Shown here: in pieces, positions 14,461 through 49,802 of the stretch
Numbering within the stretch: position 1 is the first letter of the stretch
How the letters are laid out: every line of letters starts with the position of its first letter
From: an uncultured Verrucomicrobiota bacterium
GTDB lineage: Bacteria > Verrucomicrobiota > Verrucomicrobiia > Limisphaerales > SIBE01
Length of the DNA: 51,895 nt
Assembly: GCA_964355375.1 (NCBI GenBank)
Contig: CAYHFE010000003.1
Span: 1 to 51,895 of the forward strand
Direction: 5' to 3'
Translations under genes and position numbers: made by a program
Notes under the pieces: model-generated
The model's input: the letters and a program-made list of their open reading frames with translations, nothing else
What the model was told of the DNA's origin: nothing
Database searches by the model: none

Positions 14461-14554
14461 TGCCAGGGCCCATGGAGTGCGGACTTACGAACCCCGCCAG
14501 GGCAGGAATGCAGCAACGGCAGTCTGCTCCGCATCCGCCGTGGTCACCCTGGCA
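14461..14554 (+). ncRNA. ffs: Signal recognition particle RNA (small/4.5S type)
   Basis: Domain IV signature CAGG-GCA-GGAA-UGC-AGCA (GGAA tetraloop with flanking AGG and AGCA loops). Closing helices: UGCCAGGG/CCCUGGCA, CCAUGG/CCGUGG, GUGCGGA/UCCGCAU. Lies directly upstream of dnaX-ybaB-recR, as in Bacillus. Confidence 0.7.
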
Positions 14555-14671
14555 TTTCAATTTACTTAGCATGTCGGGGGGGCCGGTCGGCGATGGATGT
14601 CGCTTCCCGGCCGGTGCCCCATCGCCATCTGAAGCCGGTGGCGCGAGAATCCGGAGAGTCGAGCCGTCGCG

Positions 14672-19289: not shown

Positions 19290-19403
19290 AGGCGAGCCCA
19301 TCCGATGGGCGCGCCGTGGACCTCGAGGGGGCCGGAAATCCTCCGCCAGGTTTTGCCGTGCGGCCGCCCTCGGCCGCTTTCTCTGAACCGTGGTTGTTTG
19401 AGT

Positions 19404-19523
19404 GGGGAGCGCGGCCGTCCCGGCTGCACCGGTCGGCGTCTCGCCGACCGGAACCAGCGCGGTGCGCGTCCACGAGGGTTCGGCGGGACGCCGAACCCGG
19501 CAGGCGAGACGCCCGCGCTCCCC
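19404..19523. repeat. 120-bp GC-rich nested-hairpin element related to the 25395 and 47548 elements
   Basis: Outer stem ggggagcgcggccgtc / gacgcccgcgctcccc. Inner hairpins ccggtcggcg-tct-cgccgaccgg and gggttcggcg-gga-cgccgaaccc. Shares the ttgagt-ggggagcgc lead-in. Confidence 0.75.
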
Positions 19524-19764
19524 ATCGCACCTTCAGGTTCAAGCCCCGATGAATGCGCAAAGCGAAAGACGGATTCCCATGATCGATTGATGGTAGGGAC
19601 GCGCGGCTCGCGTGTCCCTGGTTGCGCCGCTGGACGCCCCGCGAACGAGCCAGGGGCTCGTGCCTGCCTGAGTTTCATGGCACCGATTCGAGTCTAATCT
19701 TTGGAGGTTGCCCCCCGACCCAAGCGCCGAAAATTCCGTCCAACGATCCAGAGCGGTCTGACCG

Positions 19765-25337: not shown

Positions 25338-25394
25338 GGGCTCCTTGCTCCAATCCGTCCGGCTGGATCGGCCCAACTCGCCAGGCTGTGACGA

Positions 25395-25582
25395 TTCAGT
25401 TGAGTTGGGGAGCGCACGCGCCCTCGCGTGCCGTGGTCGGCGCCCTCGCCGACCACACTGGCGTCTGCGAACGAATCACCGTTTGGTGAATGTCTTGGGC
25501 CTTCCTTCCGACCGGCGGGGCGCCGGTCGGCCCACGCGAGGGCGCGTATGCTCCCCAATTCCGACTGCATATCAACGGCTAA
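25395..25582. repeat. 188-bp four-hairpin intercistronic element, copy E1
   Basis: ttcagttgag...ccgactg-N-acggctaa ends. Outer stem ggggagcgcacgcgccctcgcgtg / cacgcgagggcgcgtatgctcccc. Inner hairpins gtggtcggcg-ccct-cgccgaccac and cgaccggcg-ggg-cgccggtcg. Near-identical copy at 47548..47735. Confidence 0.85.
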
Positions 25583-46190: not shown

Positions 46191-47513
46191 TCAGTGGCTC
46201 TTCTCCCCCGTCGCGAGACTGGGTGGGGCTTCACAGCCGGGACCCAGCGCCGGCATGATCCCCCGCCGGACCAGCTCGTTCGGACAAAACTCAAAACACC
46301 GCGCACAGGCCAGGCAAGCTCCGCGGTCCGGTTCATAATCGGCGCGAGTCTGGCGGAGCGCGAGCCCGACGAATTTCAGCCCGACGACCAACCCGACCCA
46401 ACCGCCAAACAACCATCCGCCCCATCCGAAACGCCGCCGAGTTTCCAGCGCGGCGGCCAGGAGTTCCTTGGGATTTTTTTCCGCCCGGGACAACGCGAGA
46501 GTCTCGGGGGTTTGGCTGACCCCGCGGATGGGCTGGCCCGCGTGGCTGACGAATCGCTCTGCCAGCGCCACATCCGGATGAAGGCGCGAGGCGGCCACGC
46601 TCAATCGGCCACCCAGCCAACCGGTCAGACCGATTAAGACTGGCAAGAGCACGAGGAATCCGGCCAACCGCTTCCGTTCGAGGCGCAGGCTCAGTGGATT
46701 CGGCGGCGGAGCCCACGGTTCGCGCAAGGCGCCGTAGGGACAGGACGCCTCGCACAGTCGGCATTGGGTGCAGGTGTTCGGTGTCACCCGCACGCGCCAT
46801 TTTGAAACCATCGCCGCCAGTTTGAGCAGGGCGCCATAGGGACAAAGAAACCGGCAATAGGGTCGCCCGACGAACATGCCGACCAAAAGAAAGGCGGCTC
46901 CCAGCATGAGCATGCTGAAACTGCCGCTGAGCCGAAAGAGCGGCACAAATGGGTCATACCGACAGATCACGAAGGCGCTCCCCGTGACCGCAAACAGGAC
47001 CCCGGCGCCGAGAAAAATGAAGGGCACCAATCCCAGGCCCTGCTCCAGCCAGGCCGGCACCTTGACCGGCTTCAGCAAGACCAGATCTTGCAGGGCGCCG
47101 TGCGGACACACCGCCGCGCAAAAGGTCCGCCCGAAAAAGAGACTGACCAGCAGCGGGGCGAAAAAAAAGACCGCGACTGTCCAGGGCACGGCGTAGCCGC
47201 GATCACCCAGGGCCAAGGCCACGTTTTGCAGCGAGCCAATCGAACACACACACCCCTCGCGATAGAATCCAAAATAGGCCAGAGAAAAGAGCGACAGGCC
47301 AAACACGGCGCGGCGCGACCGTTTCTTGAAGACGAGATAAGAGGCGAGACTCAGAGCCGCCACCAAGACCAGGGCATCGATATAATGCCAAGACACCGCG
47401 CGCGGCAAAGGCGTCTGCGTGCTCGGGACTTGGTAACCGCCCTCGAAATCCGGCGGCGGGAATCGCGGTTCCGCCACGGCGGTCCCGACCAACAGCATCC
47501 CCATCGTGACCAT
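46191..47513 (-). CDS. NapH/MauN-like integral-membrane polyferredoxin
   Basis: 440 aa from the Met at 47513. TM helices with CxxxCP motifs (FCAAVCPHGALQD, CRFLCPYGALLK), plus CTQCRLCEASCP and C-terminal CLACARCFEFCP. The 711-aa track ORF is an artefact that reads through repeat E2. Confidence 0.8.
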   Translation of the reverse strand: MVTMGMLLVGTAVAEPRFPPPDFEGGYQVPSTQTPLPRAVSWHYIDALVLVAALSLASYLVFKKRSRRAVFGLSLFSLAYFGFYREGCVCSIGSLQNVALALGDRGYAVPWTVAVFFFAPLLVSLFFGRTFCAAVCPHGALQDLVLLKPVKVPAWLEQGLGLVPFIFLGAGVLFAVTGSAFVICRYDPFVPLFRLSGSFSMLMLGAAFLLVGMFVGRPYCRFLCPYGALLKLAAMVSKWRVRVTPNTCTQCRLCEASCPYGALREPWAPPPNPLSLRLERKRLAGFLVLLPVLIGLTGWLGGRLSVAASRLHPDVALAERFVSHAGQPIRGVSQTPETLALSRAEKNPKELLAAALETRRRFGWGGWLFGGWVGLVVGLKFVGLALRQTRADYEPDRGACLACARCFEFCPNELVRRGIMPALGPGCEAPPSLATGEKSH

Positions 47514-47547
47514 ACCGAGAAGAATCCAGACACCCAAGGTGCATCTC

Positions 47548-47735
47548 TTCAGTTGAGATGGGGAGCGCACGCGCCCTCGCTTGCTGTGATCGGCGCCCTC
47601 GCCGACCACGTTGGCATGCTCCGATGAATCATCGCCTTGTGACTGAATGGGGTTCTCGTTCCGACCGGCGGGGCGCGGGTCGAAACACGCGAGGGCGCGT
47701 GTGCTCCCCGAATCCGACTGGGCACTTACGGCTAA
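47548..47735. repeat. 188-bp four-hairpin intercistronic element, copy E2
   Basis: Same ends, outer stem and inner hairpins as E1, with scattered substitutions. Lies between the NapG-like and NapH-like genes. Confidence 0.85.
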
Positions 47736-47911
47736 GCCGTGACTCAAGTGAGTCTGCCGTTGAACGGGGCGGGGACGGCCCGTCTCCGGTTGGCGTGAGA
47801 GCACCGCGAGGCGCCCCCGGGACGCCGGCGCACTTTCCTCCCGGGATGCGCCGTCGCCCTGAATCGTCCGCGTCTTCGCGGCGGCGGAAAATGAAACCAG
47901 GCCGGTCATGG

Positions 47912-48484
47912 TCAATGAGTCGATGTCTTCAGCTTGTAAGGATGGTTCACCGACACTCGGCGGAAGGCATCTCCAGGGCAGACGCGGCCAATGGCACATT
48001 CGTTGCAGTTCAGGCAGCGGTCCTGCCGGACCTGCATGAAAAGAGATCCGTTGCCAAACCGATTGCATCCTTCCACGCATTTCGCGCAGCCCATGCACAG
48101 ATCTTCGTCGATCACATACTCGTAGTAGGGATCCTCCACGAAGGTTCGTTTGATGGCGGCGGTCGGACAGAGTTGATTCTCCGCCCCCGTGTTCAGGTCG
48201 TTGGGCTCGGGAACGAAGTAGCCGGTGCAGAGCTGGCAATACCCACAGAGGGCATGGGCGTGAACGCATTTGGCGGCCGACTGTTCCAGAACACACGAGG
48301 TCGCGCACAGGCCGCAACGCAGACATTTCTGGGGATCGATCTGCCAGACCGTCGTCTTGGCGTCGCTGCGCGTGGCCAGGGTCCCGATCAAACCGCCCAG
48401 ACCGGCCACGGCCGCAGTTCGCGCTCCGTCGCGCAGGAACTGCCTGCGGCTCACATGAACTCCCGCTTTGGGATCAGCAGCCAT
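47912..48484 (-). CDS. Tat-exported polyferredoxin (NapG/MauM-like, multiple [4Fe-4S] motifs)
   Basis: 190 aa. SRRQFLRDG twin-arginine signal; CLRCGLCATSC, CGYCQLC...CP, CMGCAKCVEGC, CLNCNECAIGRVCP. Confidence 0.85.
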   Translation of the reverse strand: MAADPKAGVHVSRRQFLRDGARTAAVAGLGGLIGTLATRSDAKTTVWQIDPQKCLRCGLCATSCVLEQSAAKCVHAHALCGYCQLCTGYFVPEPNDLNTGAENQLCPTAAIKRTFVEDPYYEYVIDEDLCMGCAKCVEGCNRFGNGSLFMQVRQDRCLNCNECAIGRVCPGDAFRRVSVNHPYKLKTSTH

Positions 48485-48530
48485 AGTTTTCTTTCTCGAA
48501 CACTCGCTAGGACGTTTCTATGCAGTCCGG

Positions 48531-48714
48531 TTCAGGGTGGAACGGGCAACTTGCCCGTTCCTGTGGGCGACCAGCCCACAGGCTTTGCTGCCGGAAATCT
48601 CACTGATTCGTGACTTCAATGGCCGGGCCAGACTCGGCGGCAAGTTGCCGCCGAGAACGGGCTGGCAGCCCGTTCCACCCCTTTCACCCATTTCAACTGC
48701 ATTCATACGGCTAA
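48531..48714. repeat. 184-bp four-hairpin intercistronic element, divergent copy E3
   Basis: Shares the ttcag lead-in, the central gtgact-caatgg core and the caactg-N-acggctaa tail with E1/E2. Its four hairpins have different sequences (48539..48561, 48562..48580, 48636..48652, 48655..48675). Confidence 0.7.
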
Positions 48715-49802
48715 GACGCTTCGGCCCCGGCTTTCCCCGCCCCCGTCTTCCGCGCCATGATCCGAATGTCTCCGACCACCAGGTCCAGAATATAAACCCG
48801 ACCCCGCCCGTCCACCGCCACATCCAAACCGCCGTGCGTCGCGTCGGACATGGAATCGTCTGAAGTCGATTTCTGGTTTTCGATGAACGATTCCGGCCCC
48901 GCCACGACCGACTCCAACGATCCGTCCACTCCGTAAATCTTAACCCGCGGCAAGCCTTTCTCACAGGTGACATATCGTCCGTCCGCCAGGAGCGTGAAGT
49001 TGACCGGGTTGCAGCACCCGCAGAAACCGTCCACCGCCGCCGACGCCTTCCCCCACGACCATTCGAAGTCCCCATTCGGCGTGAAGATCTCGATCTGGTG
49101 GCGGCCGGGATTGGCCACCCGGAGCATGCCATCCCGATGCCATTCCAGGTCGAAGAACGGGCTGGGCACGACGAACCCGGGCACATCCTTAGCCTGATTC
49201 TTCTCGCCAATCCGGCCGATCAGTTTTCCCGACCGGTCATACCTGAGCACGACCCGATGCCCCGCATCCGCCGCGAATACGTCATTCGGCCCGATGGCCA
49301 CGCCGGTGAACCAGGTCCGCGCTCCGGGGGGATCCCAGACGGCCCGGCGCGTTCCCTGACGGTCATAAAATTCCAAATGATCGCGCAACCCCACGCAGAT
49401 CGTTCCGTCCTCGCCCAAGGCCAGGCAGCGCGGAGGCGTGGTCAAGGCGATCTCCGATTCCCTGACTCCCGCCAAATTCAGGACATGGACGTAATTCCCC
49501 GCCGCCAGGAAAATGCGCTCGTCCCGAATGGCGATGCGGCGCGGGTCCTCCAAAACCTTGGCGATTCGGCCCACCTCCTCGAAATGAAGCCAGCGCGGAT
49601 CGGTCCGGGTGAGACTCGTCACGTCGTAGGCGAACGGATTGGATTCGTCGCGCGCCGTGATGGATGAGGCCCGTCGGCGCAACTGCCGAGCCGCTACGGC
49701 GACACCCGCCGCCGCCACCACAACTCCCGCGCCGGCCGCGCCGCGTCGGATGAATTGACGTCGATTGAACGATCGAGGCTCCGGATTCTCGGGCATAGTC
49801 AT
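48711..49802 (-). CDS. Tat-exported NHL-like beta-propeller protein with a CGCC motif
   Basis: 363 aa. NRRQFIRRG signal; blade-like repeats (RVVLRYDRSGKLIGRIG, HQIEIFTPNGDFEWSWG, RVKIYGVDGSL, RVYILDLVVGDIRIM); DGFCGCCNPVNF. Confidence 0.7.
   Translation of the reverse strand: MTMPENPEPRSFNRRQFIRRGAAGAGVVVAAAGVAVAARQLRRRASSITARDESNPFAYDVTSLTRTDPRWLHFEEVGRIAKVLEDPRRIAIRDERIFLAAGNYVHVLNLAGVRESEIALTTPPRCLALGEDGTICVGLRDHLEFYDRQGTRRAVWDPPGARTWFTGVAIGPNDVFAADAGHRVVLRYDRSGKLIGRIGEKNQAKDVPGFVVPSPFFDLEWHRDGMLRVANPGRHQIEIFTPNGDFEWSWGKASAAVDGFCGCCNPVNFTLLADGRYVTCEKGLPRVKIYGVDGSLESVVAGPESFIENQKSTSDDSMSDATHGGLDVAVDGRGRVYILDLVVGDIRIMARKTGAGKAGAEAS

Follow-up and report, generated by a model that had tools for sequence, protein, structure and literature searches.

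Repeat elements in the analysed window

The analysed window, a stretch of 51,895 nucleotides, corresponds to contig C3 of genome G000, a Verrucomicrobiota assembly of 8.2 Mb in 956 contigs with a G+C content of 60.6%. Three repeat elements had been delineated in the initial annotation (E1, 25395–25582; E2, 47548–47735; E3, 48531–48714), and all three were found at these positions. Their true ends lie further to the left, 14 nt (type A) or 24 nt (type B) beyond these starts, and the element length is ~203–211 bp in alignments of 123 type A and 44 type B copies with their flanks. Each element consists, in this order, of a terminus, an arm, a small core hairpin, an inverted arm, and a terminus (Table 1). 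An arm is made up of two adjacent GC-rich hairpins; the arms are inverted about a core of ~60 nt, and matches of the arm covariance model R1 occur as +/− pairs. Four hairpins per element had been described initially, but there are five, as the small central TCAC-N6-GTGA hairpin is conserved too.

Types A and B have a termini consensus in common (CTNAGCCGTAAnnATKCAGTTG ... CAACTGCATACTTACGGCTNAG). The outer hairpin of type A is GCACGCG-CCCT-CGCGTGC with GGGGAGC in front, and its inner hairpin has the apex GGCG-CC(C)T-CGCC atop a variable lower stem; the type B arm consensus begins GGGTGGAAC. The hairpins of E1 and E2 had been reported as nearly identical; the two elements show 83% identity across 174 nt. 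E3 matches them in layout but has arms of unrelated sequence (GGGTGGAACGGGCAACTTGCCCGTTCC and TGTGGGCGACCAGCCCACA, plus inverted counterparts), so that only ends and core are common to all three. The presence of these ends and of the core in E1–E3 was confirmed; the ‘ttcag’ of E3, however, is not homologous to the ‘ttcag’ of E1 and E2, and the E3 counterpart is ‘atgcagtcc’. Folded as single-stranded DNA, E1 reaches −69.2 kcal/mol (z = −8.4 versus its own shuffles). Under R1, the arms score 76.3 bits (+) and 50.1 bits (−) in E1, and 68.2 and 66.1 bits in E2.

Table 1. Repeat elements, neighbouring features, and RAYT cassettes. Positions refer to the window unless a locus (L) is given.
Feature	Position	Strand	Remarks
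E1, type A	25381–25582	+	Left terminus 25381–25394 degenerate; right terminus ends ACGGC-TAA
E1 left arm	25407–25468		
E1 core hairpin	25476–25489		TCAC-N6-GTGA
E1 right arm	25495–25556		
E2, type A	47534–47738	+	Arms 47560–47621 and 47648–47709; core hairpin 47629–47642
Degenerate second element beside E2	47729–~47890	+	Right boundary approximate
E3, type B	48507–48715	+	Left terminus CTAGGACGT..ATGCAGTCC; core hairpin 48600–48613
Fourth element, short, diverged arm pair	~19400–19525	.	GGGGAGCGC...GCGCTCCCC; without long termini
Solo B-type left terminus	1095–1124	−	CTGAGCCGTAGCGATGCCGTTGGGTTCAG
Y1 transposase of the TIRYT kind, 316 aa	65–1015	−	Flanks 1–64 and 1016–1094; AAAGGTGTCAGTTCCTAG-type inverted repeats
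NapH-like gene	46191–47915	−	Frame open through E2
Bacterial small SRP RNA	14461–14557	+	67 bits
alaS insert 1	L127 3218–3279, 3799–3860	+, −	R1 matches; A arm, Y1 ORF, A arm; arms face inward
alaS insert 2			B arm, paralogous Y1 ORF, B arm; arms align with E3 arms
alaS insert 3			Short A arm pair
thrS cassette	L129 2605–2664, 3122–3182	+, −	R1 matches; A arm, Y1 ORF, A arm; in frame

At its left end, E2 adjoins the region in which the NapH-like gene starts, or overlaps with it. Since the frame of this gene is open through E2, simple ORF callers lengthen it by ~120 codons; the real start lies a few tens of nt below 47548, in ...LGVWILLGMVTMGMLLVG. The degenerate element beside E2 starts with a left terminus, CTAAGCCGTGACTCAAGTGAG, and a palindromic junction (ACGGCTAAGCCGT) is common to it and E2. 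At the right end of E3, the terminal CTNAG holds the TAG stop codon of the upstream gene (48711–48713, minus strand). The fourth element contains an R1 match at 19464–19523 (−) with 35.3 bits. Within the solo terminus, TGA is the stop codon of the gene at 1121–1819. This terminus is truncated by a TIR-flanked (TIRYT-kind) Y1-transposase unit that has its own GGTGTCAG-type inverted repeats. The unit appears to have entered directly after ‘TTCAG’; an identical copy of its 316-aa transposase is present on contig C250. The small SRP RNA is the sole match in the window that reaches an Rfam gathering score.

Copy number, arm types, and distribution

The family is far larger than the three members recognized at first. 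By blastn against the own genome, we recovered ~350 non-overlapping loci, of which 205 are near full length (type A, n = 146; type B, n = 59); motif counts amount to 357 A arms and 198 B arms. The window itself contains at least one further member (the fourth element, Table 1). At least five arm types, namely A, B, C (CCCTCACCCC/CTCTCCC), D, and G, are found on the same ~25-nt termini and core, and an F-type repeat likewise uses termini common to other arm types. In the F-type repeat, which breaks the assembly at the ends of contigs C130, C319, C338, and C397, the same terminus is followed by TGGATAGAGAACGGATTGCTCCGTCGCCCCCCACCCAAACCGG; no transposase was found at its internal copy (C26:16372–16416). 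Between nearest-neighbour copies, the median number of differing positions is 36 of 203 (~18%), and thus there is no visible sign of recent transposition.

The 21-mer of the outer hairpin was detected in at least 112 contigs, nearly all of them from Verrucomicrobiota MAGs, with labels that include Chthoniobacterales, Limisphaerales/Pedosphaera, Verrucomicrobiales, Kiritimatiellia, and others. Matches to E1 are patchy among related genomes (17 of 41), and R1 matches 56 of the 121 genomes of the order. According to our own ORF-based gene calls, two of 132 type A copies and none of 58 type B copies lie inside called genes. A few in-frame intragenic arm copies do exist. Short A arm pairs are also located deep in the long called ORFs C121:2206–5535 (1110 aa) and C668:1–3171 (1057 aa) and are possible further cases.

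Conservation and covariation of the hairpins

The structure of the elements is under selection, and the covariation is statistically robust. Within this genome, non-consensus columns account for 5.4% in the arm stems and ~30% in the termini and unpaired core. Nearest-neighbour differences per site are 0.063 in stems versus 0.28–0.31 elsewhere, i.e. stems are ~5 times more conserved, and double changes in stems number 64 versus 32.8 expected if the two sides were independent. The outer hairpin is nearly invariant across more than 100 Verrucomicrobiota contigs. In the inner hairpin, the apex is kept between genomes and the lower stem changes freely yet stays paired, with stems of at least 9 bp in 123 of 168 distinct arms versus one of 168 shuffles.

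A covariance model of the arm (R1) was built, as envisaged in the initial annotation, and covariation was assessed statistically on 147–150 arms from other genomes. In the plain MAFFT alignment (147 arms), double-sided pair changes affect 338 cells versus 154.6 ± 11.5 after shuffling, and the covariation score is 0.266 versus 0.108, with none of 500 shuffles reaching either value. In the model-fitted alignment (150 arms), 94.9% of cells are paired versus 77.2% in shuffles, double-sided changes affect 462 cells versus 151.6 ± 12.8 (0/500 shuffles), and the covariation score is 0.433 versus 0.109 (0/500), with slid controls at 0.06–0.11. Compensatory changes occur in 8–9 of the 10 inner-hairpin pairs over the two alignments (8/10 in the model-fitted one). 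Both alignments are reported because the MAFFT alignment (A2) mis-registers arms with 3-nt loops, an error that is removed in the model-fitted alignment (A3) at the price of a lean towards structure. The earlier proposal that pairing is kept while sequence changes is therefore upheld. In many genomes, the two inner hairpins within an element lack complementarity to each other, which identifies the local hairpins as the conserved units and argues against a long inter-arm stem.

An outer hairpin that is both palindromic and invariant in sequence might also be read as a double-stranded binding site for a nucleoid or topology protein, amplified by recombination and not by transposition; BIMEs, for example, bind gyrase- or IHF-like proteins. 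The compensatory variation of the inner stem, however, demands intramolecular pairing and not a fixed duplex half-site. In addition, the arms are associated with RAYT genes, and different repeat families have been inserted independently at orthologous spacers (both described below). We regard such binding sites as a highly improbable explanation.

RAYT cassettes within alaS and thrS

A survey for Y1_Tnp domains yielded 22 matches in the genome, only one of which, on contig C51, has a blastn-detected element directly adjoining. Homologues of ten annotated Y1 proteins were absent from 118 element-bearing loci of other genomes. Our first reading of these results, that the elements have no link to RAYTs, was overturned, as the C51 match sits between two arms. 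It is part of alaS, which is single-copy in the assembly (locus L127:567–4733, minus strand) and forms a 1388-aa AlaRS ORF. This ORF has three in-frame inserts (Table 1), and its Pfam match is cut into three pieces by the two cassettes. A further cassette resides in thrS (contig C150, locus L129:1601–3301, minus strand); its insertion site is conserved across families of the order, e.g. in genome G105. Two arm types, A and B, are thus tied to two paralogous cassettes in one genome, with two A-type RAYT copies present.

For the Y1 ORFs, the match to NCBIfam NF047646 (‘REP-associated tyrosine transposase’) covers positions 4–145 of 146. The A types score 81.2 and 81.9 bits (cut-off 80), and the B type has 66.5 bits, which is under the cut-off. 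The HUH motif is intact in the thrS A-type and the alaS B-type sequences and degenerated to H-V-N in the alaS A-type sequence. The best solved relative is TnpA-REP of E. coli (PDB 4ER8), the catalytic tyrosine of which (Y115) aligns with the conserved ‘HYICRNP’. The RAYT ORFs in alaS and thrS lack start and stop codons of their own.

Of the 121 genomes of the order, 25 contain this RAYT lineage, with nearly all matches in stop-free frames of 570–1540 aa, and in at least 14 related genomes from different families the RAYT lies between R1 arms. Spot-checked relatives have the same alaS and thrS sites, the first alaS site being empty in G063. Arms were detected in 23 of 25 RAYT-positive versus 33 of 96 RAYT-negative genomes (no match at E ≤ 1e-15), a comparison that is partly true by construction and whose statistics ignore kinship. 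The initial annotation had held that a match to a known REP/BIME-type family would speak against its selected-structure reading; the arms flank RAYT transposase ORFs, which is such a match in kind.

Two other Y1-like domains (LPHW...HVH...FWQKESFDH / IWQHDAYNH) were encountered in frame in long ORFs on contigs C940 (L130) and C297 (L131), with short inverted coding repeats (SLEGSA..., ARPSRSGS...) on either side and without R1 arms. Classical small RAYT/IS200-like genes at C264:2096–2536 and C54:18502–18927 have their own flanking hairpins, one with a GTAG-type tag (GCTAC...), which indicates that the genome hosts several independent REP-type systems.

Orientation and genomic placement

E1–E3 agree in orientation and position, as initially observed; genome-wide, the orientation relative to flanking genes is random. 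Between co-directional genes, the ratio of sense to antisense copies is 40:37 (type A) and 13:8 (type B), and convergent versus divergent gene pairs are represented at 22:7 and 20:5, all as counted with our own crude dicodon ORF caller, which mis-set at least one start (that of the NapH-like gene, run through E2). The stems contain 150 G·T wobbles versus 59 A·C mismatches when each arm is read with CCCT as its loop, i.e. on the top strand for the left arm and on the bottom strand for the right arm. As this wobble excess falls on opposite strands for the two arms, any one transcript would contain one of the arms in its mismatched form. Sorted by transcript direction, the G·T:A·C ratio is 49:14 for sense and 34:16 for antisense copies (p = 0.29) and is thus independent of direction.

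For the redox operon, we compared the spacers with their orthologues in seven related genomes. The spacer at the E2 site, type A here, contains a C-type element in G010, a GTAG-type REP doublet in G001, and nothing in G002, G006, and G011. At the E3 site, type B here, the relatives have a GTAG-type REPIN-like element (G001, G010), a C-type element (G006), or nothing (G002, G011). In the loci orthologous to window positions 46.4–50.0 kb (L120–L124), these hot-spot spacers flank a NapG-like gene and hold A, B, C, GTAG-type REP or REPIN elements, or none. Because the orthologous spacers are empty or differently filled, the elements are lineage-specific insertions in tolerant hot spots and not parts of the operon. 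The view of a special intercistronic element of these operons was consequently abandoned: the family is dispersed and without orientation bias.

E1–E3 are probably not oriented RNA devices or operon-specific RNA switches. An alternative explanation is a host-selected, cis-acting structured RNA that acts as intercistronic stabilizer, processing site, or terminator for host operons. It would fit the location of elements within operons near the next start codon, hairpins that are far better conserved than the remainder, and the strong covariation, and REPs and MITEs can stabilize upstream mRNA. The unbiased orientation relative to transcription does not fit, nor does the excess of convergent over divergent gene pairs, which is as with selfish repeats. 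The element is missing or replaced in orthologous spacers, the wobble asymmetry tracks the polarity of the arms on opposite strands and not the mRNA strand, and the same arms are translated in frame within alaS and thrS. Rfam, which had been suggested as a check, returned only chance-level matches around E1–E3 and no family for these elements. A host-selected RNA is, on this evidence, very unlikely.

Termini and target-site features

In the 18 clean copies with CTNAG at both ends, the N of the left motif is identical to that of the right one in 11 and complementary to it in none. Identical flanking trinucleotides were found in only ~19 of 81 copies. Among 106 ends into which an upstream gene reads, 32 have the stop codon of that gene within CTNAG (TGA, n = 16; TAG, n = 9; TAA, n = 7), which forms a sharp spike versus neighbouring distances; examples are the right end of E3 (48711–48715) and the solo terminus (1121–1124). 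These features hint at a TNA target duplication, a TNA-targeting step, or a separate scaffold. Neither TNA duplication nor stop codons in CTNAG are expected of HUH transposition. A search for empty sites with joined flanks gave one usable paralogous pair (C18 versus C124), the junction of which is ambiguous. The idea that the termini are halves of a pre-existing target palindrome was dropped, as no credible empty palindromes were found.

Such ends would be accommodated if the elements were hybrid or classical MITEs, with the termini as TIRs of a DDE (IS5/Harbinger-like) transposon that duplicates TNA and the arms as cargo or captured RAYT substrates. The sharing of the same ~25-nt termini and core by at least five arm types, the identity of N within CTNAG, the upstream stop codons TAA, TGA, and TAG inside this motif, and a junction common to tandem elements (ACGGCTNAGCCGT) all agree with this explanation. 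The termini are, however, the least conserved part of the element, with 30% non-consensus versus 5% in the arm stems, the opposite of a MITE driven by its TIRs; few copies have identical flanking trinucleotides, and in many genomes the elements are without such termini altogether. Within this fragmented assembly, we did not find an IS that has these ends. The DDE_Tnp_1 loci of the genome are without these ends, and no DDE_Tnp_4 or DDE_Tnp_1_2 genes were detected in it. We also searched for an autonomous IS as pairs of ends 0.6–5 kb apart. Candidates of 1.6–1.8 kb enclose housekeeping genes (HAD/NUDIX, folB) and are therefore two separate elements and no IS. A MITE origin is hence unlikely in our view.

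Proposed origin and mobilization of the elements

As the hairpin arms also flank RAYT genes, the elements are best viewed as REPIN-like passengers and not as operon-specific RNA switches. Judged from sequence, E1–E3 are probably non-autonomous, REPIN-like mobile elements that serve as substrates of RAYT transposases, a REPIN/RAYT-type system without the GTAG tag, mounted on common termini and a common core, with an outer end that frequently coincides with the stop codon of the gene upstream. By homology, the hairpins would extrude in single-stranded DNA, and each arm would be read on the strand with the CCCT loop. By analogy with known systems, the cognate RAYT would bind and cleave the arms, and the arm pair would be copied or moved. 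The requirement for recognition may be what keeps the stems paired and the sequence of the outer hairpin fixed. The copies lie in intergenic spacers, mostly at the 3′ ends of genes and in many cases precisely at the stop codon, in either orientation. These would be sites of low harm at which copies persist, and effects on the mRNA of host operons, if any, would be a by-product.

Counting against substrates of a RAYT is that neither GTAG nor CGTC is present at the foot of the A or B arm palindromes. Arm types with different RAYTs have the long termini (CTNAGCCGT...CAGTTG) and the core in common, and both are absent from the RAYT cassettes, so recognition by RAYTs alone does not explain them. 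Arms also occur in 33 genomes that have no RAYT match at E ≤ 1e-15.

More tentatively, the A and B elements may be the dispersed offspring of RAYTs that exist only as in-frame passengers of essential aaRS genes, an intein-like refuge without splicing, and may be mounted on a common scaffold of termini and core that either enters at stop codons or provides them (CTNAG). This is a possibility to which we give somewhat less than even weight. If true, several co-adapted REPIN/RAYT lineages are maintained within a single bacterial order, and AlaRS and ThrRS contain the enzymes of these lineages as internal domains.

Elements of REPIN/RAYT kind would account for the structured spacers that form a conspicuous class in the operons of Verrucomicrobiota, and would prevent their annotation as riboswitch-like RNA. 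They provide a clean natural covariation data set of hairpins that appear to be read as single-stranded DNA and not as RNA. They link the RAYT genes that lie in frame within alaS and thrS to intergenic repeats numbering in the hundreds. REPIN–RAYT co-evolution and the expression of a transposase from within an essential enzyme become directly testable. They also bear on genome plasticity, with operon spacers as insertion hot spots and element ends that double as stop codons.

Comparison with known mobile repeat systems

In our literature search, no paper was found on these elements or on RAYTs inside aaRS genes. The nearest published work describes GTAG repeats in the verrucomicrobium O. terrae together with TIR-flanked ‘TIRYT’ genes (Di Nocera et al. 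2013, PMC3733652). In such TIRtrons, RAYT-like genes lie between partly self-complementary inverted repeats that start with GGGGWSAS, and dimers of these TIRs are found dispersed as well (Di Nocera et al. 2013, PMC3733652). Both there and here, RAYT-like genes are flanked by inverted repeats with a GGGG-rich start, and the motif of our elements (GGGGAGCG/A) agrees with GGGGWSAS at 6–7 of 8 positions. The true TIRYT-like genes of this genome (~310 aa, GGGGTCAG TIRs) are nevertheless a separate set that is unlinked to the A and B arms. Several paralogues of the 316-aa Y1 transposase at 65–1015 in the window have GGGGTCAG TIRs that fit the published GGGGWSAS.

With bacterial MITEs (ERIC, Correia/NEMIS, RUP, BOX, RPE), the elements have in common a length of 100–300 bp, terminal inverted repeats, and an intergenic or intra-operon location, and occasional in-frame intragenic copies are known from Rickettsia RPEs as well. 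Unlike in MITEs, the termini are least conserved here, a cognate DDE IS was not found, and the arms match those of a Y1 transposase.

The closest resemblance in kind is to REPIN–RAYT systems or REPtrons (Nunvar 2010; Bertels & Rainey 2011, PMC3116915; Ton-Hoang 2012; TnpA-REP, 4ER8). Both consist of two inverted palindromic units and a spacer, in hundreds of extragenic copies located mostly at gene 3′ ends. In both, the same units flank a Y1/HUH gene of the RAYT family (NF047646), the hairpins are the most conserved part, and the distribution is patchy but deep in the lineage. Our elements differ in that they are without the GTAG tag that defines classical REPs, and separate GTAG-type REPs exist in this genome and its relatives. 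Their arms are hairpin doublets with CCCT loops and GGGGAGC in front, and they reach ~200 bp with additional common termini and a core hairpin. Their RAYTs, moreover, are without start and stop of their own and lie in frame in the essential genes alaS and thrS. The elements probably represent a system of the REPIN/RAYT kind with these features of its own, rather than a new regulatory RNA.
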